IMG/VR virus record: IMGVR_UViG_2667527666_000002
Coordinates: 1-17,684 of that record
Length of the DNA: 17,684 nt
Source of the DNA: a virus
Taxonomy: Duplodnaviria; Heunggongvirae; Uroviricota; Caudoviricetes
Strand: one strand, 5' to 3'
A program made the translations under genes and the position numbers. Numbering within the stretch: the first letter of the stretch is position 1; each line of letters opens with the position of its first letter. The notes beneath the pieces are model-generated. The model was not told the origin of the DNA and ran no database searches. It was given only the letters and a program-made list of their open reading frames with translations. Positions 1,459-17,684 of the stretch are shown piece by piece.

Positions 1459-2596
1459 TTACACATCATTAGTACCTTCCTTATTTTTTGACTGGGACAA
1501 ATTTGGGACCGATGGGTTCAGGATCGAGTCTATTTGCCGTGCGTGTTCGGTAAGGTGATTAGGTGCAAGGTGAGCATATCGACGAACCATTTCGATAGAC
1601 TCCCAGCCTCCCATTTCCTGTAACACTGACAACGGGACTCCGGCTTGAACCAGCCAGCTTGCCCAGGTGTGTCTCAAGTCGTGAAATCTGAAATCATCAA
1701 TACCAGCCCGTCTCAGCGCCGCTTTCCAGGCTGTGTTTGCGTCATACCGCATCTTCCTGACCGTTGGCGCTTTCCTTGTACACAAATACCCAACGGTGAT
1801 GATTCCCGATTTGTTTTTTCAATACGCGACATGCAGTATCATTCAGCGCAACGCCAATTGCGCGGTTTGATTTACTCTCTTCCGGGTTTATCCATGCCAC
1901 CCGGCGCTGCATGTCTATTTGTTGCCATTCAAGGTTGATGATGTTCGAGCGTCTTAAGCCTGTTGCCAGTGCAAATTCAACAACAGACTTTAATGGCTCC
2001 GGACATTCATCAATCAGCCTTTGTGCTTCATGGGGCTCCAGCCAGCGGATCCGTTTATTCTTTGGTTGAGGCACTTTAATAATTGGTGCCTTATCCAGCA
2101 TTTTCCATTCACGCTCTGCGGCTCTTAGTAGGGCCTTTATAAATGAAAGATGCGTAGCCTTTGTTGCAACGGACGCTGGTTTTGGCATGTATTCTGGAAC
2201 AGGTTTCCCTTTTTTTCTGCATGCTTCTGCCCTGAGTTTCCAGTTTTCCTCATGACGCCGGTTCGTCATTTTCTGCATTGCTGAATAAATTTTTGATTCA
2301 GTAATGTCTCTTAGTTGCATTCCTGCGAAATGTTGAAGCCAGAATCCGATCCGGCTTTTGTCATCGTCCAGTGATTTTTTATGTGCTTTCTCTTCGAGCC
2401 ACCTGATACACGCCTCCTCGAACGTCATATCAGGTATTTCACCAAGTTTGCTGACCCGCCATGCTTCAGCCTTTAGCTTGTCATGGAGCTCTGTCGCCTG
2501 CCTTTTGTCCTTTGTTCCAAGAGACTGTTTAAATCTTTTACCGTTCGGCAATGTGAAACTGGCGTACCATATTTCACCTCTGCGGAAGAGTGACAT
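1459..2596 (-). pseudogene. int: Phage tyrosine integrase, reading frame broken near 1742-1800 (N-terminal 284-aa frame plus C-terminal catalytic fragment in another frame)
   Basis: ORF 1742-2596 begins [14 protein letters not shown] with RBS GAGGAAA upstream of the ATG at 2596; the C-terminal ORF 1459-1785 carries the HxxR box ([11 protein letters not shown]) and the Tyr-containing VRRYAHL motif but lies in a different frame. The two frames overlap over 1742-1785, consistent with a 1-nt indel near aaggaaagcgcc. Confidence 0.7.
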
Positions 2597-8035: not shown

Positions 8036-8055
8036 AGGTCGGTCATGAGCACTAA
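7834..8055 (+). CDS. Hypothetical small protein, C-terminal frame (...[39 protein letters not shown]...); true start unclear (a TTG near 7876 follows GAAGGAG)
   Basis: Protein-like frame whose stop at 8053-8055 overlaps the next gene's start at 8045 by 11 nt, as expected for a genuine operon member. Confidence 0.3.
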
Positions 8056-8386
8056 ATTAACCGGCTATGTATGGGATGGTTGCGCTGCGTCAGGCATGAA
8101 ATTATCCAGCGTGGCAATTATGGCCCGCCTGGCTGATTTCAGTAATGACGAAGGTGTGTGCTGGCCATCAATTGAAACTATTGCCCGTCAGATTGGCGCG
8201 GGGATGAGTACCGTCAGAACGGCTATCGCACGGCTGGAAGCAGAAGGCTGGTTAACGCGTAAGGCGCGTCGCCAGGGTAACCGCAATGCGTCGAATGTTT
8301 ATCAGCTTAACGTTGCGAAGCTTCAGGCAGCGGCATTTTCTCAACTGTCAGATTCTGACCCGTCAAAATCTGACGCATCAAAATGA
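8045..8386 (+). pseudogene. Replication-initiator (O-like / winged-HTH N-terminal domain) gene, 3'-truncated by the IS629 insertion
   Basis: N-terminal HTH-type domain ([13 protein letters not shown]...SIETIARQIGAGMSTVRTAIARLEAEGWL); the ORF ends on the TGA formed by the first three bases of the IS inverted repeat (8384-8386); no C-terminal domain. Confidence 0.6.
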
Positions 8387-8425: not shown

Positions 8426-9316
8426 TCAGGCTGCCAGATCATCGTTTCCGATGGAAGCATAATAAGCTTTTTCTGCTTCTGCCGGAGGAGTATGGCCCAG
8501 CCTTTCCAGCAATCGTCGATTGTTATACCAGTCCACCCACGTGAGTGTGGCCAGTTCCACTTCTGCACGGTTTTTCCAGCTCTTACGGTGTATTACCTCC
8601 GCTTTGTAAAGACCATTGATGCTCTCCGCCATCGCGTTGTCATACGAGTCGCCTGTACTTCCTGTTGATGCCAGTAATCCGGCTTCCTTAAGCCGCTGTG
8701 TGTAGGCCAGCGATACATACTGAGAACCTTTATCACTGTGATGGACCGTGCCGGACGGTCGACGGGCCCATAACGCCTGCTCCAGTGCATCCAGCACGAA
8801 TGTCGTTTCCATGGACGATGAGACCCGCCACCCCACGATGTATCCGGCAAACACATCAATGATGAACGCCACATAGACGAAGCCCCGCCATGTGCTGACG
8901 TAAGTAAAATCAGCCACCCACAGCTGGTCAGGTCGTTCTGCCACGAACTGACGGTTTACGCGGTCGCCTGCGGCAACGGCTTTCCGGCTGATGGTCGTAC
9001 GGACCTTTTTACCCCGGAGAACACCGGCAAGTCCCATAACCGCCATGAGACGTGCCACAGTGCATCTGGCCACTCTGATACCTTCCCGTAACAACTGACG
9101 CCAGACTTTACGCACACCGTATACCTTGTGATTTTCATCGTATACGCGCTGTATCTCTTTCTTCAGCCAGTCATCGCGCTGCGCACGGGCACTGCGTTTA
9201 TCCGGATGATGTCGCTGTTGCTGACAGTGGTAATACGTTGACGGGGCAATATGCAGTTCGCTGCATAGCGGTCCGACCCCGTACTGCTCACGCAGCTTAT
9301 CCAGCAGTGGCATCAT
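8426..9316 (-). CDS. IS629-like transposase OrfB (DDE/integrase catalytic domain), 296 aa
   Basis: Translation [29 protein letters not shown]... with a DDE-type core (WVADFTYV ... HSDKGSQY ... [10 protein letters not shown]). Confidence 0.9.
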
Positions 9317-9639
9317 TTTTTCCAGAGGCGGTCGAACTCCGCCTTCGCAAAATAAGCGGAAGCCTGGCGAAGGATATCGTTACTGCGGCGCAGTTCACGA
9401 TTTTCACGTTCCAGCTCTTTCAGACGCTGACGTTCAGCGGTGGTGAGCCCTCCATCACCGCCCCCGGTATCCCGCTCATGCTGGCGAACCCAGACACGCA
9501 GAGTCTCCGGCGTACAGCCAATCTTTGGAGCAATGGAACAAATTGTCGCCCATTGTGAGTCATATTCGCTCTGACTTTCCAGAACCATACGGACTGCCCG
9601 TTGACGGACTTCGGGGGAAAAACGAGTATTTTTAGTCAT
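9313..9639 (-). CDS. IS629-like transposase OrfA (HTH), 108 aa
   Basis: Translation [42 protein letters not shown]...; identical to the orfA of the second copy at 17358-17684. Confidence 0.9.
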
Positions 9640-9693
9640 CCTGTTTACCTCTTTCTCAGGAAGTTTAGTCTCCAGGATTCCCGGGGCGGTTCA

Positions 9694-10238
9694 ATTAACA
9701 CCCTGTTTGGCCCGTTTGTTCTGGATCTGTTCACTGACGGTGATAACGCCAAATGTGCTGCGTATTACACGGCGGAAGACAACGCGCTGGCGCATGACTG
9801 GTCAGAACGCCTTGCGGAGCTTAAAGGTGCTGCCTTTGGTAATCCCCCATACAGCCGCGCCAGTCAGCATGAGGGGCAATACATCACCGGCATGCGTTAC
9901 ATCATGAAGCATGCCAGTGCCATGCGTGATAAAGGCGGGCGCTATGTTTTCCTGATCAAAGCTGCCACCAGCAAGTGTGGTGGCCGGAAGATGCAGATCA
10001 TATTGCTTTTATTCGCGGGCGTATTGGTTTTGAACTGCCTGCCTGGTTTATCCCGAAGGATGAGAAGCAGGTGCCGACAGGCGCTTTCTTCGCTGGTGCT
10101 ATTGCTGTTTTCGACAAGACCTGGAAGGGACCGGCAATCAGCTACATCGGGCGCGATGAACTTGAGGCATGTGGTGAGGCCTTTCTGGCGCAGGTTCGCC
10201 AGCAGGCAGAAAAACTGGTCAGGGAGATGGCGGCATGA
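9694..10238 (+). pseudogene. Phage Dam-type DNA N6-adenine methyltransferase remnant: 5'-truncated at the IS boundary and frameshifted near 9960-9980
   Basis: Frame 1 immediately after the IS reads INTLFGPFVLD...FGNPPYS (NPPY catalytic motif); the C-terminal part (VWWPEDADHIAFIRGRIGF...) continues in another frame (ORF 9975-10238), whose stop overlaps the next gene's ATG. Confidence 0.6.
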
Positions 10239-10561
10239 CGACGTTAACTCAATGCCAGCAGCAGGTGCTGGATATGCTGATTTCTTATCAGAAAGAACGT
10301 GGCTTCCCGCCAACCAATCAGGAGGTGGCAACCATGCTGGGATACCGTTCAGTGAATGCAGCGGTGGAGCATCTTCGCGCACTGGAGAAAAAAGGCGTCA
10401 TCACGATAAAGCGTGGCGTGGCCCGGGGCATCACGCTTCATACCGCGGTGAAGGACGACGACAGCGAGGCGGTCGGGATTATCCGCTCACTGCTTGCCGG
10501 TGAGGAAAACGCAAGGCTGCGTGCAGCCCACTGGTTACATGAGAGGGGCCTGAAAGTATGA
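10235..10561 (+). CDS. LexA N-terminal DNA-binding-domain-like protein, 108 aa, without peptidase domain
   Basis: MTTLTQCQQQVLDMLISYQKERGFPPTNQEVATMLGYRSVNAAVEHLRALEKKGVI resembles the LexA winged-HTH domain; no S24 domain follows; start/stop coupled to neighbours. Confidence 0.6.
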   Translation: MTTLTQCQQQVLDMLISYQKERGFPPTNQEVATMLGYRSVNAAVEHLRALEKKGVITIKRGVARGITLHTAVKDDDSEAVGIIRSLLAGEENARLRAAHWLHERGLKV

Positions 10562-10966: not shown

Positions 10967-11776
10967 ATGAATAATCTGATGGTCATTGATGGTATTGAAG
11001 TTCGTCGTGATGCTTATGGGCGTTACAGCCTGAACGATCTGCATCGCGCAGCAGTAGCATCTGGTGCAAATGCCAGAACCAAGGAGCCAGGAAAGTTTCT
11101 TTCCAGCCAACAAACTGTTGAGCTTGTTCATGAATTAACCAACACCCAGAATTTGGGTGTTGACCCGGTGAGCGTGATTCATGGGGGAAATGAACGGGGA
11201 ACGTATGTCTGTAAGGAACTGGTGTATGCCTATGCAATGTGGATCAGCCCGTCATTCCATCTGAAGGTGATCCGTACTTTCGATATGGTAACCAGCGCGC
11301 CGGAAAAGTTATCCGGACAGGCTGCTGACAAGATGCAGGCTGGCGTGATTCTGCTGGACTTTATGCGCCGGGAGTTAAATCTGTCTAACTCATCTGTGCT
11401 TGGGGCCTGTCAGAAACTCCAGGAGGCTGTTGGCTTACCGAATCTGGCACCGCGCTATGCCATTGATGCACCTGCTGACGCGCCTGATGGCTCAAGCCGC
11501 CCCACGCTGTCGCTGAGTGCACTGCTGAAGCAGTATGGTATCCGCCTGACGGCTAATCAGGCATATCACCAGATGGCGAAGCTGGGGATCGTTGAACAAC
11601 GCGAACGATACAGCCGTACCGCGATTAACAACATCAAAAAATTCTGGTCGCTGACAGCGAAAGGCTGCATGTTCGGCAAGAACATCACCAGTCCCGCAAA
11701 TCCGCGCGAGACGCAGCCGCATTTCTTCGAATCCCGATTCCCTGAGCTGTTAAAGCTGCTCGATACCGTTCATTGA
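10967..11776 (+). CDS. KilA-N domain antirepressor-like protein, 269 aa
   Basis: N-terminal KilA-N/APSES-type domain (IDGIEVRRDAYGRYSLNDL ... GTYVCKELVYAYAMWISPSFHLKV); RBS AGGAG upstream of the ATG at 10967. Confidence 0.75.
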   Translation: MNNLMVIDGIEVRRDAYGRYSLNDLHRAAVASGANARTKEPGKFLSSQQTVELVHELTNTQNLGVDPVSVIHGGNERGTYVCKELVYAYAMWISPSFHLKVIRTFDMVTSAPEKLSGQAADKMQAGVILLDFMRRELNLSNSSVLGACQKLQEAVGLPNLAPRYAIDAPADAPDGSSRPTLSLSALLKQYGIRLTANQAYHQMAKLGIVEQRERYSRTAINNIKKFWSLTAKGCMFGKNITSPANPRETQPHFFESRFPELLKLLDTVH

Positions 11777-12773: not shown

Positions 12774-12790
12774 TTTTGTGGAGAAAGTTG

Positions 12791-13174
12791 ATGCGTGATA
12801 TTCAGATGGTTCTTGAGCGTTGGGGAGCGTGGGCGGCTAATAATCATGAAGATGTGACCTGGTCGTCCATTGCCGCCGGTTTTAAGGGATTAATTCCTTC
12901 AAAAGTAAAATCTCGCCCGCAATGTTGTGACGATGACGCGATGATCATTTGCGGGTGCATGGCCCGTCTGAAAAAGAACAACAGCGATTTGCACGATTTA
13001 TTAGTAGATTATTATGTAGTCGGTATGACATTCATGTCACTGGCAGGTAAGCATTGCTGCTCTGATGGTTATATCGGGAAAAGGTTACAAAAAGCTGAGG
13101 GCATAATTGAAGGGATGTTAATGGCATTAGATATCTGGTTAGAGATGGATATCGTTGTTAATAACTCTAATTAA
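12791..13174 (+). CDS. Q: Late-gene antitermination protein Q (short Q family), 127 aa
   Basis: Start at the ATG at 12791 with GGAG 8 nt upstream (the ORF track's 12776 start is a TTG); last gene of the nin-like block, in the position Q occupies upstream of the lysis cassette. Confidence 0.7.
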
Positions 13175-13207
13175 TATGCCAATTGTTTACTAAAAATTAT
13201 TAAAAAT

Positions 13208-13225
13208 GGGGCGTTGAGACGCCCC
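13208..13225 (-). terminator. Candidate intrinsic terminator for the porin gene (stem GGGGCGT / ACGCCCC, 4-nt loop, followed on the minus strand by AUUUUUAAUAAUUUUU)
   Basis: Hairpin and U-rich tract read directly; lies about 140 nt beyond the porin stop, after three further hairpins. Confidence 0.4.
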
Positions 13226-13363
13226 CAAAAATAAAGGGTAATATATAACAGAAGGTTTATATAGTTAGAAGCAAGGTTGTGCTTCTAAAGGAAGTGGCTT
13301 GAGGGAGCCACTTATATGTTGGGGAGGCAACGCCTCCCGCAACATATCTTTTTCGTAATCAGA

Positions 13364-14446
13364 TTAGAACTGGTAAACCAGACCTACAGCAACGATGTCA
13401 TCAGTATCAATACCAGCTGTTTTGGTAAACTTACTATCGTCAATTAAGTTGATTTTGTAATCAACAAAAGTGGACATGTTTTTATTAAAGTAGTAAGTAG
13501 CACCGACATCGACATACTTGACTAAGTCTCGGTCACCATGAACACCAAGGTCTTTACCTTTTGACTGAAGGTAAGCAACAGATGGGCGCAGACCGAAGTC
13601 AAACTGATATTGTGCTACTGCTTCAAAGTTTTGTGCTTTGTTTGCAATATGGTTATTACCAAAAACGGTCATATTCTGAGTTTCAGAATATGTGGTAGCC
13701 AGATAGATATTGTTCGCATCATATTTCAGGCCTGCAGCCCATACTTCCGCATTTTTGCCGGAGGCATTGAATTTGCTCTTACCATAGGCGACCTGACCGT
13801 CAGTGCGATCTGATTTAGCATAGGTTGCACCCACGCCGAATCCTTCATACTCATAAGTAGTGGAGAAACCGAAACCATCACCATTGGCTTCAGTTACGTC
13901 AGTGCGGTCATTTTTACCCTGATACTGAGCAGCAAAGTTCAGGCCATCGACCAGACCAAAGAAGTCGTTGTTACGATAAGTTGCAACACCAGTAGTGCGA
14001 CCAGTCATGAACACATCTGTTTGGGTCCAGGTATCACCACCGAATTCTGGCAGGACGTCAGTCCACGCACCGATGTCGTATGCTACACCGTAGTTACGGC
14101 CGTAATCGATTGAGCCGTAATCACCAAATTTCAGGCCTGCAAATGCAAGACGGGTTTTGTCTTTGGAAGAACCTTGAGATTCAGCGCGGTTGCCTTTGAA
14201 TTCATATTCCCACTGACCGAAACCAGTCAGTTGATCGTTGATTTGGGTTTCACCTTTGAAGCCAAGACGGGCATAAGTAGTATCACCATCATCTGCATCA
14301 TTAGAGGAGAAGTAGTGCTTAGCATTAACTTTCCCGTACAGATCCAGCTTGTTACTGTCTTTATTATAAATTTCAGCTGCCTGAGCAGACATCGCCATCA
14401 GTACTGATGCAGCTACAGCAGAAATTGCCACTGTTAATTTTTTCAT
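13364..14446 (-). CDS. General-diffusion outer-membrane porin, OmpC/NmpC/Lc family, 360 aa precursor
   Basis: Signal peptide ending AQA-AE; mature N-terminus [17 protein letters not shown] typical of OmpC-family porins; C-terminal ...VGLVYQF beta-barrel signature; opposite strand to flanking phage late genes. Confidence 0.92.
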
Positions 14447-14874
14447 CGTGAGCCCTTTTTTTTGAACTATTATTAAAAAATGATGTCACTGCGCGATAAA
14501 TATTCATCTAATCAATGTGATTATTTCAAGATGTAAGTTTTGGTTTCTCGTTTGATTTGTGAAGTAGATCTCTATTTTTATCTGAACTTTTTTCTATCGA
14601 ATCCTATTCATAGCTCTTGGCTGAATAAAAATAAATCTATTAGCCAATTTATACTAACGGTTGTTATTTATAAGTGCTCTATAATTTGAAGGTTCAATTT
14701 AAATCGGCTAAAAATAACACTGGAAATTATTTGTTGGTTATTTGTTGAGATTTGCTTATGTATTTGTAGTGGTGTTTTCAATACTCGGTAGCATTCTCGC
14801 AAATATCATTTAGTGGTTTACGTACGTAAAAAATTGGTTATGCTGTTAAGAGTGGTTACTTCGTCACACAGCTT

Positions 14875-14908
14875 AAACCCGCCGTCGAGCGGGTTTTTCC
14901 ATTTTTTG
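14875..14908 (+). terminator. Intrinsic terminator (8-bp stem AAACCCGC / GCGGGTTT, then TTTTTCCATTTTTT), candidate tR' about 115 bp upstream of the holin gene
   Basis: Perfect stem followed by a T-rich tract on the plus strand; no plus-strand gene ends upstream, consistent with a short terminated late-promoter leader transcript. Confidence 0.6.
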
Positions 14909-15019
14909 AGTCTCGATATTAGCTGATAACCCAATACCTGAGTTATTCACTGACTTCGAGTCTGTTACGTTTCGTAGTATTCCCTCAATTTACACCCGCT
15001 TTGTCTGCGAGGTGGGGTT

Positions 15020-15235
15020 ATGAAATCCATGGATAAGTTAACAACGGGTGTCGCCTATGGCACCTCAGCAGGTAGTGCCGGGTACTGGTTTTTACAGCTG
15101 CTAGATAAAGTCACGCCCTCACAGTGGGCGGCAATTGGAGTGCTGGGTAGCCTGGTATTTGGCCTGCTGACGTACCTGACAAACCTTTATTTCAAGATTA
15201 AAGAAGATAAGCGTAAGGCTGCGAGAGGTGAATAA
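15020..15235 (+). CDS. S: Phage-21-type class II holin (pinholin), 71 aa
   Basis: Two predicted TM helices with the glycine-zipper-like [10 protein letters not shown]; basic C-terminus [11 protein letters not shown]; stop overlaps the endolysin start (TAATG). Confidence 0.9.
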
Positions 15236-15732
15236 TGTCGCCATCATTACGCAAGGCTGTAGCAGCTGCTATTGGTGGTGGGGCTGTTGCCATAGCGTCT
15301 GTGCTCATCACTGGTCCGAGTGGTGACGATGGTCTGGAAGGTGTCAGCTACATACCATATAAAGATATTGTTGGTGTATGGACTGTATGTCACGGGCATA
15401 CAGGAAAAGACATCATGCTCGGTAAAACGTATACCAAAGCAGAATGCAAAGCACTCTTGAATAAAGACCTTGCCACTGTCGCCAGACAAATTAACCCGTA
15501 CATCGAAGTCGATATACCGGAAACAACGCGCGGCGCTCTTTACTCATTCGTTTACAACGTGGGTGCTGGCAATTTCAGAACATCGACGCTTCTTCGCAAA
15601 ATAAACCAGGGCGATATCAAAGGCGCATGTGATCAGCTACGGCGCTGGACATACGCTGGCGGTAATCAATGGAAAGGACTGATGACTCGCCGTGAGATTG
15701 AGCGTGAAGTCTGTTTGTGGGGGAAACAATGA
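15235..15732 (+). CDS. R: SAR (signal-anchor-release) endolysin, lysozyme-like, 165 aa
   Basis: N-terminal Gly/Ala-rich SAR domain ([20 protein letters not shown]) followed by a lysozyme-type catalytic domain; stop overlaps the Rz start (ATGA). Confidence 0.92.
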
Positions 15733-16187
15733 GCAGAGTAACCGCGATTATCTCCGCTCTGGTTATCTGCATCATCGTCTGCCTGTCATGGGCTGTTAAT
15801 CATTACCGTGATAACGCCATTACCTACAAAGCCCAGCGCGACAAAAATGTCAGAGAACTGGAGAAGGCGAACGCCACCATCGCTGACATGCGGAAGCGTC
15901 AACGTGATGTAGCAGAACTCGATGCAAGATACACAAAGGAGCTTGCTGATGCTAACGCGACTATCGAAAGTCTCCGTGCTGATGTTTCTGCTGGGCGTAA
16001 GCGCCTGCAAGTCGCCGCCACCTGTGCAAAGTCAACGACCGGAGCCAGCGGCATGGGCGATGGAGAAAGCCCAGGACTTACAGCAGATGCTGAACTCAAT
16101 TATTACCGTCTCCGAAGTGGAATCGACAAGATAACCGCGCAGGTTAACTACCTGCAGGAATACATCAGGACGCAATGCCTGAAATAA
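15729..16187 (+). CDS. Rz: Rz i-spanin, 152 aa
   Basis: ATG at 15729 overlapping the endolysin stop; N-terminal TM helix ([17 protein letters not shown]) followed by a coiled-coil-like periplasmic domain. Confidence 0.8.
15949..16134 (+). CDS. Rz1: Rz1 o-spanin lipoprotein, about 61 aa, embedded in the +1 frame of Rz
   Basis: Signal peptide [20 protein letters not shown] with lipobox VSAC, then proline-rich [13 protein letters not shown]; lies entirely within Rz in a different frame. Confidence 0.7.
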
Positions 16188-16388: not shown

Positions 16389-16886
16389 ATGAAATCATTA
16401 ACCCTCTTCAATTAACCAATTCGTATCGGTGAAGATGGCATGATCTGCCTCACTGATATGTGGAAAGCCAGTGGTAAAAGTGAATCTGAATCGCCTTACC
16501 ACTACCTGCGAAACAAGCAGACCAAAGAGTTCTTAGCCGAGCTGGAGAAAAACCACGAATCTGTGGTTTTTACTGAGCGCGGTGTACACGGTGGAACATA
16601 TGGCGGGAAGTTTGTTGCTTACGATTATGCGGCTTGGTTAAACCCCGGGTTCAAGTACGCGGCCTATAAAGTCCTCGATGACTACTTCACCGGAGAACTT
16701 CAGCATCGCAACAGCTTAAGTGCGCAGCTCAACATGAAATGTCATGAGTTTGACCAGAAGAAAGACATGGCGAGCTTCTGCGGACAAGGGCTGGCAGCAT
16801 GGCGCTATACTAAGCCAGTGTTGGTCGCTGAGATTAACTCCCTGGCTAACCAGCTGCAGATTACGATCCCCGGGCTTCCGGGATGA
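16389..16886 (+). pseudogene. KilA-N domain gene, paralogous to 10967-11776, with an in-frame TAA at codon 9 (16413-16415); a product may still be made from the internal ATG at 16440
   Basis: ATG at 16389 (MKSLTLFN), in-frame TAA, then the same frame continues PIRIGEDGMICLTDMWKASGK...GTYGGKFVAYDYAAWLNPGF (KilA-N signature), aligning with the N-terminus of the intact paralog. Confidence 0.5.
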
Positions 16887-17146: not shown

Positions 17147-17303
17147 CCATTACAAAGCCCATTTACGGGTGGGCTTGATAATGAAACCGGAATTTATTCT
17201 GGGCCACCAGTTAACGGCAGTACCACGAAACAACCCAAGCCAGTAAGTGGGGAAATAACACCGGCAGCCACTGAAAGATGAACCTCCTGCCTTATGGCAA
17301 AAA

Positions 17304-17684
17304 TGAACCGCCCCGGGAATCCTGGAGACTAAACTTCCTGAGAAAGAGGTAAACAGGATGACTAAAAATACTCGTTTTTCCCCCGAAGTCCGTCAACGGG
17401 CAGTCCGTATGGTTCTGGAAAGTCAGAGCGAATATGACTCACAATGGGCGACAATTTGTTCCATTGCTCCAAAGATTGGCTGTACGCCGGAGACTCTGCG
17501 TGTCTGGGTTCGCCAGCATGAGCGGGATACCGGGGGCGGTGATGGAGGGCTCACCACCGCTGAACGTCAGCGTCTGAAAGAGCTGGAACGTGAAAATCGT
17601 GAACTGCGCCGCAGTAACGATATCCTTCGCCAGGCTTCCGCTTATTTTGCGAAGGCGGAGTTCGACCGCCTCTGGAAAAAATGA
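17304..17684 (+). mobile_element. Second IS629/IS1203-like element, opposite orientation to the first, truncated by the window end
   Basis: Left inverted repeat TGAACCGCCCCGGGAATCCTGGAGACTAAACTTCCTG begins at 17304 and matches the reverse complement of 9657-9693; orfA follows. Confidence 0.9.
17358..17684 (+). CDS. IS629-like transposase OrfA, 108 aa
   Basis: Translation identical to the OrfA of the first IS copy; stop TGA at 17682-17684. Confidence 0.9.

Follow-up and report, generated by a model that had tools for sequence, protein, structure and literature searches.

Organization of the locus

The window, meaning the whole stretch of 17,684 nucleotides analysed here, begins with proA (1-1254) and the tRNA-Thr(CGU) gene thrW (1369-1444), followed by a lambdoid prophage. 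Within this prophage, a minus-strand porin gene is flanked by a quuD-type Q gene on one side and by S-R-Rz lysis genes of the phage-21 type on the other, as in the reference loci. A complete opposite-strand porin gene between Q and the holin was what the first-pass annotation had described, and the corresponding open reading frame indeed matches Pfam Porin_1 (PF00267) from end to end (profile positions 1-337 of 337, E = 1.9e-151). The features of this region, in window coordinates, are as follows.

12791..13174, plus strand: Q antiterminator, quuD-type, 127 aa (ATG at 12791; mechanical ORF from TTG at 12776; Phage_antitermQ, PF06530, E = 5e-53)
13200..13363, minus strand: 3' UTR of the porin mRNA, the putative IpeX sRNA region; four hairpins, then an intrinsic terminator (stem 13225..13208) and a U run
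13364..14446, minus strand: porin CDS (nmpC/lc), ATG start, 360 aa with signal peptide; stop codon 13364-13366
14378..14446, minus strand: signal peptide, residues 1-23, cleavage before AEIYNK
14447..14656, minus strand: 5' UTR and porin promoter region (PnmpC), AT-rich, GC 0.27-0.31
14558..14573, plus strand: candidate CRP-like half-palindrome TGTGAAGTAGATCTCT, from a pattern search with 2 mismatches, inside the promoter region
14817..14844, plus strand: putative late promoter pR' (-35 TTTACG at 14817-14822, 16-nt spacer, -10 TATGCT at 14839-14844; start near 14851)
14875..14905, plus strand: intrinsic terminator, putative tR' (AAACCCGCCGTCGAGCGGGTTT + TTCCATTTTTT), from the terminator scan and homologous to the terminator annotated in 933W
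15020..15235, plus strand: holin S, phage-21 type, dual-start MKSM, essD homologue (Phage_holin_2_1, E = 2e-35)
15235-15732, plus strand: endolysin (Pfam Phage_lysozyme)
15717-16187, plus strand: Rz, with Rz1 embedded within 15922-16134 (Pfam Phage_lysis and Rz1)

The prophage around these genes is degraded. Its integrase region (1459-2596, minus strand) is split into two ORFs matching positions 1-101 and 101-171 of Pfam Phage_integrase, and since the two ORFs divide the profile between them, the gene is frameshifted; the prophage is probably unable to excise. An IS3-family element at ~8426-9696 interrupts the replication region, which appears disrupted as a module. This left IS copy is bordered on one side by a replication-initiator-like HTH gene (8045-8386, plus strand) and on the other by a Dam-like methyltransferase ORF (9601-10503, plus strand), the mechanical start of which falls inside the IS end. 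A second copy lies at the right end of the window, and the two (9313-9696 and 17301-17684) face in opposite directions and show 100% identity across the 384 nt compared. Both carry orfA with an HTH_Tnp_1 domain, and the left copy additionally includes orfB (rve) and an ALIL frameshift pseudoknot (9242-9358). Together they bracket 7.6 kb containing Dam, RusA, Q, the porin cassette, and the lysis genes, and it is conceivable that this segment could be inverted or mobilised as a composite unit.

Several other genes were noted in the window. Between the Dam-like gene and rusA, a 108-aa ORF (10235-10561, plus strand) encodes a full LexA DNA-binding domain without the S24 peptidase, and may represent a phage-encoded LexA-like regulator. 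A KilA-N/ORF11CD3 antirepressor-like gene (16440-16886, plus strand) follows Rz/Rz1, at the place where the DLP12 prophage of K-12 instead carries borD on the opposite strand after its lysis cassette, and a second KilA-N gene is found upstream (10967-11776).

Identity of the porin

Membership of the OmpC family, also proposed at first pass, is borne out by the Porin_1 match together with the match to solved OmpC structures (E = 5.8e-137). Structures of OmpC, OmpK36, PhoE, and OmpF range from E = 1e-137 to 1e-111, and 48 solved porin sequences match the window porin at E < 1e-110. The mature chains of solved OmpC, OmpK36, and PhoE align from residue 24 (AEIYNK), which identifies residues 1-23 as the signal peptide, a stretch identical in K-12 NmpC. 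The protein ends in YQF, with the terminal Phe providing the aromatic residue for BAM recognition, and both ends of the precursor are thus as intact as first described. The L3 eyelet motif PEFGGD (P133-D138) is invariant between the window porin, OmpC, OmpF, and PhoE in the alignment. Given its ~65% identity to solved porins, the product is likely a trimeric, 16-strand beta-barrel general-diffusion porin; the pore activity of NmpC was the subject of Hindahl et al. 1984, as cited in PMC8144880.

Sequence comparisons place this porin closest to NmpC. Identity to the K-12 NmpC fragment is 91% by BLASTP (316/346) and 93% in a multiple alignment, in which K-12 OmpC, OmpF, and PhoE reach 66%, 63%, and 65%, respectively. 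The window protein is 100% identical to WP_000737271.1, encoded by a prophage at the DLP12 site, and at least 1000 public contigs encode the same protein, labelled there either "outer membrane porin protein LC" or "porin OmpC". At the DNA level, the Q-to-holin segment is 99% identical to a prophage that occupies argU, the DLP12 site, in E. coli LH10-b-1. The window porin is an intact allele of nmpC, known from the cryptic prophage DLP12 (qsr') of K-12, and of lc, known from the temperate phage PA-2, and no sequence feature argues against this identification. The two genes were treated together by Blasband et al. 1986, and the nmpC/lc locus was sequenced in that year by Blasband, Marcotte, and Schnaitman (both as cited in PMC11677980). 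The nmpC/lc-IpeX locus is already known, being a textbook and very common locus with a biology worked out from the 1970s to the 2000s. The suggestion made at first pass, a phage-borne porin with possible lysogenic-conversion effects, describes what this locus is known to be; that annotation recognised neither the common locus itself nor IpeX in the 3' UTR, the RNA being an important part of the conversion mechanism.

The database name "porin OmpC" would fit a different origin, in which the gene is a host ompC orthologue or a recent capture of chromosomal ompC, with no distinct phage porin lineage involved. PGAP applies this name because the protein scores 521 bits with the NCBIfam model "porin OmpC", above its cut-off of 484, but that model operates at subfamily level and is no equivalog, while the equivalog cut-offs for PhoE and OmpF both lie above the score of the window porin. 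The gene does not qualify as an OmpC orthologue, as the protein shares 66% identity with K-12 OmpC against 91-93% with NmpC, and its locus is a prophage next to thrW rather than ompC-micF. Phage Q and lysis genes moreover flank all copies examined, and we regard an ompC origin as extremely improbable. The correct annotation is hence an nmpC/lc prophage porin, not ompC, with the adjacent 3' UTR annotated as the IpeX regulatory RNA.

Position relative to Q and the late promoter

To the left of the cassette, Q is annotated as quuD in matching genomes and is a distant relative of Q21 (E = 1.4e-7). Its DNA is ~76-78% identical to the Q genes of 933W and Sp5, phages which share with the window only Q and a short block around 14800-14898. 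In the 933W record, this short block directly follows Q and is annotated as pR' and tR'. The promoter within the block matches the consensus at 8 of 12 positions and is invariant in four of the five cassettes compared, with one change in the fifth, and the initial transcribed sequence, TAAGAGTGGTTAC, is conserved in the 933W alignment. From the homologous promoter of Sp5 (TTTACG-16-TATCAT), transcription is predicted to start 258 nt before the end of a terminator T-run, and 258 nt is the PR'-to-tR' distance obtained for Sp5 by dRNA-seq and Term-seq (PMC7547250). That the Sp5 homologue reproduces the mapped distance supports the assignment of 14817-14844 as the true late promoter. A promoter directly after Q (13175-13260) was also considered and rejected, as the alignment revealed no meaningful similarity to 933W pR'-tR' in this interval.

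The hairpin at 14875-14905 is strong and followed by a T-run, and by homology probably acts as a functional tR' in this prophage. The terminator scan detected no further terminator-like site between this hairpin and S, from which a pR' RNA of only ~50 nt is predicted for the window. In Sp5, the mapped transcript of the StxS precursor (258 nt) apparently continues through the homologous first hairpin and stops at a second terminator. A minus-strand "hypothetical protein" of 38 aa is annotated across pR'-tR' (around 14800-14920 of the window) in several phage records, most likely an erroneous gene call on top of a regulatory element. Beyond tR', the holin is annotated as essD in matching genomes, and phage 434B, with the K-12 module, has its S71/S68 antiholin/holin pair annotated.

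Because pR'-tR' lies at 14817-14905, past the porin, the ~1.65-kb cassette occupies the interval between Q and pR' and falls outside the Q-dependent late transcript. It is convergent with Q and constitutes an insulated, self-regulated cargo. The first-pass comparison with the cargo position of other lambdoid phages accordingly stands for the placement between Q and the lysis genes; the equivalence with the stx position does not, since the porin lies upstream of pR'-tR'. A reading as stx-like late-operon cargo, expressed mainly upon induction through Q antitermination from pR', could appeal to the fact that Stx phages carry their stx genes and tRNAs between Q and S, where the porin is found. 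However, the porin is encoded on the strand opposite to the late genes, and the homologue of the pR' mapped in 933W/Sp5 lies downstream of it. The K-12 copy has its own mapped promoter (PMC11677980), and NmpC is reported to be abundant in uninduced cells (PMC8144880). Late-operon expression thus appears very nearly untenable.

Promoter, expression, and 3' UTR

Upstream of the porin, GC content falls from 0.42-0.50 within the gene to 0.27-0.31 for 14400-14800, in agreement with the AT-rich upstream region pointed out earlier, and the 573 nt of intergenic DNA that separate the porin start from the holin gene match K-12 at 99% identity. For K-12 PnmpC, PMC11677980 reports a transcription start site mapped by 5' RACE and two ways of removing the promoter, namely deletion of -199..-1 and replacement of -210..-1 (numbered from the start codon). 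[quoted passage not shown] The candidate site at 14558-14573 is consistent with the reported Crp control, being the one CRP-like match (2 mismatches) in the promoter region, with no enrichment of such matches across the window. A generic sigma-70 scan called no promoter on either strand of 14447-15019; PnmpC and pR' fall below its threshold and were for this reason located by homology.

Downstream of the gene, 13200-13363 is 100% identical to the quuD-nmpC intergenic DNA of K-12 DLP12. This 3' UTR folds at -63.1 kcal/mol (z = -9.0 against shuffles), and the terminator scan calls a minus-strand terminator at its end. An Rfam scan of the whole window returned only the tRNA and the IS3-family ALIL frameshift element, and since Rfam contains no IpeX family, the IpeX assignment is based on K-12 DNA identity and position. 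IpeX is described as a 167-nt DLP12 RNA made from the phage porin promoter within the porin transcript (PMC12197685), and is reported to repress ompC and ompF (PMC5069750), through an action that does not depend solely on complementarity with ompC mRNA (PMC12197685). A further hairpin was noted immediately 3' of the porin stop codon, at 13300-13350, where the plus strand reads ATATGTTGGGGAGGC-AAC-GCCTCCCGCAACATAT followed by CTTTTT. This hairpin might act as a terminator for Q-derived transcription and limit antisense transcription of the porin gene; the terminator scan did not call it, owing to a stem mismatch.

The first-pass annotation had made its proposal conditional on the gene being expressed, a point already answered for near-identical copies: PMC8144880 puts NmpC at ~2% of the proteome in K-12 NCM3722, which has an intact nmpC, and a proteomic study comparing extraintestinal clinical isolates also found NmpC (PMC2947995). 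In NCM3722, NmpC is described as a major porin under carbon limitation, seemingly complementary to OmpC, and its level is given as 200-fold lower in an MG1655 background, where the gene is interrupted by IS5 (PMC8144880). The gene has also been linked to heat resistance, per a cited reference. Expression nonetheless depends on strain and condition, as Prilipov et al. 1998 refer in their title to a "quiescent" nmpC in E. coli B(E).

The same title could be taken to indicate that the window gene is intact but silent in its host, a quiescent remnant of a decaying prophage with no present physiological role. In line with such a remnant, the prophage is defective, with its integrase in two ORFs and identical inverted IS3-family copies interrupting and flanking the region; IS insertions within nmpC are common elsewhere (IS5 in K-12, IS1 or IS5 in other strains), and the gene has been argued to be dispensable or even harmful (PMC11677980). 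Yet the window shows no damage to the ORF, signal peptide, promoter, or 3' UTR, and the regulatory parts are 99-100% identical to those of K-12, in which the promoter is active and its start site mapped; the proteome share measured in NCM3722 likewise speaks against silence. An intact cassette in an otherwise decayed prophage also suggests retention, and is compatible with a benefit to the host. Overall, we consider a silent gene unlikely, and favour a cassette that is expressed in the lysogen.

Prevalence and allelic variation

The cassette is widespread among E. coli genomes and their phages. The segment comprising 3' UTR, gene, and promoter (13195-14660) was found at ≥80% coverage in 2473 of 5426 complete E. 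coli genomes (46%), with at most four matching places per genome among all genomes with a match, and the entire Q-to-holin segment was at least 80% present in 2392 of the 5426. In addition, 36 sequenced lambdoid phages carry the porin cassette at the same site and in the order quuD - porin (minus strand) - essD - lysozyme - Rz. These include ev207, 4A7, ev017, the PhiR series, and Perceval, in which the porin is variously annotated as OmpD, NmpC, or OmpC, and which have it in the same position with 92-96% identity over Q to S. The ev207 record annotates the porin from an upstream start, giving 380 aa. Copies in functional lambdoid phages show that the cassette travels on viable phages.

A mosaic pattern of conservation emerged when the window cassette was compared with four further ones, of which three come from phages. 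Q, IpeX, the first 180 codons of the porin, its promoter, and pR' are 93-100% identical across the compared cassettes. Over codons 181-360 (13364-13906, minus strand), nucleotide identity is 84% to PhiR68_2 and 75% to PhiR26_1, which has a K-12-like allele, and the flanks remain 97-100% identical where the 3' half of the gene diverges to 75-84%. Aligned with the OmpF/OmpC topology, the residues of this half that differ from K-12 NmpC would correspond to surface loops L4-L8, and the pattern suggests that the exposed face of the protein has undergone recombination or diversifying selection. Tentatively, the cassette could combine a frozen regulatory and N-terminal scaffold with a recombining, hypervariable 3' half, driven by allele swapping or by diversifying selection from porin-targeting phages, colicins, or antibody, with early-right (Q) transcription, which converges on the 3' end of IpeX/porin, maybe switching the cassette off on induction. 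We see this combined scheme as possible rather than probable, and both of its ideas may have been reported before. The mosaic 3' half is the sole aspect of the locus with residual novelty, and may well be documented already.

Proposed function and comparison with known systems

Taken as a whole, we hold with high confidence that the window carries an intact nmpC/lc cassette, inserted between Q and its cognate pR'-tR' and predicted to be expressed in the lysogen, where IpeX would lower OmpC and OmpF. The window copy, with its intact gene of nmpC identity, 3' UTR and promoter matching those of K-12, established position relative to pR', and wide prevalence, probably behaves like near-identical copies in expression, regulation, and IpeX effect. 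On this model, three elements would make up the minus-strand cassette of ~1.65 kb: a CRP-responsive PnmpC, the porin gene, and a structured 3' UTR that closes with an intrinsic terminator. Host RNA polymerase would transcribe porin and IpeX from PnmpC in the lysogen, under cAMP-CRP control and apart from the lytic programme, and expression would rise strongly under carbon limitation, as reported for near-identical copies. The precursor would be exported via its signal peptide and assemble into the predicted trimeric 16-strand porin, a major outer-membrane channel, while the 3' UTR would yield IpeX RNA and reduce the amounts of OmpC and OmpF made by the host. The net effect would be replacement of host porins by the phage porin, presumably altering permeability and causing phage and colicin receptors to be lost or gained.

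Phage PA-2 reportedly adsorbs to OmpC, and PA-2 lysogens are said to make Lc and lose OmpC in a manner that requires the lc 3' UTR, findings attributed to Schnaitman and colleagues in the 1970s and to Castillo-Keller, Vuong, and Misra in 2006. If OmpC is indeed the PA-2 receptor, then Lc and IpeX would act as a superinfection exclusion system. Because the prophage in the window is degraded, the beneficiary of any such role would now be the host and no longer a viable phage. For E. coli physiology more generally, NmpC can become a major protein of the outer membrane when carbon is limiting in strains whose copy is intact, which affects how OmpC/OmpF levels, sensitivity to phages and colicins, and the uptake of antibiotics through porins are to be read.

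Among known systems, the host porins OmpC, OmpF, and PhoE share with the window porin their family, their predicted fold, the mature N-terminus AEIYNKD, the PEFGGD eyelet loop, and the C-terminal YQF, but differ in locus, regulation, and loop indels, at only 63-66% identity; OmpC in particular has a long L4 insertion that the window porin lacks. The stx and tRNA cargo of 933W and Sp5 similarly consists of accessory genes between Q and the lysis genes, associated with homologous Q and pR'. However, stx lies downstream of pR'-tR', on the late-gene strand, and is Q-dependent, whereas the porin cassette is upstream of pR', on the opposite strand, and independently transcribed.

The two classical copies of the locus offer further parallels. 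PA-2 lc encodes a phage-borne general porin (Lc, or "protein 2") expressed in lysogens, with an IpeX-type sequence downstream; its likeness to the window gene is drawn from the name "outer membrane porin protein LC", which one source gives to the exact protein of the window. The phage record "Escherichia phage PA2" was considered as the classical PA-2 and rejected, as it describes an Stx phage without a porin. The DLP12 prophage of K-12 MG1655 shares with the window the order quuD - porin (minus strand) - essD - rrrD - rzpD, a 3' UTR identical at every position, 99% identity over promoter and intergenic DNA up to S, and a protein 91-93% identical, with the amino-acid changes clustered in the C-terminal half at 181-235, 263-267, 303-306, and 335-341. 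The two prophages differ in location, at argU in K-12 and at thrW, next to proA, in the window, and in the state of the gene, as K-12 nmpC is broken by IS5 after codon 346 whereas the window copy is intact.
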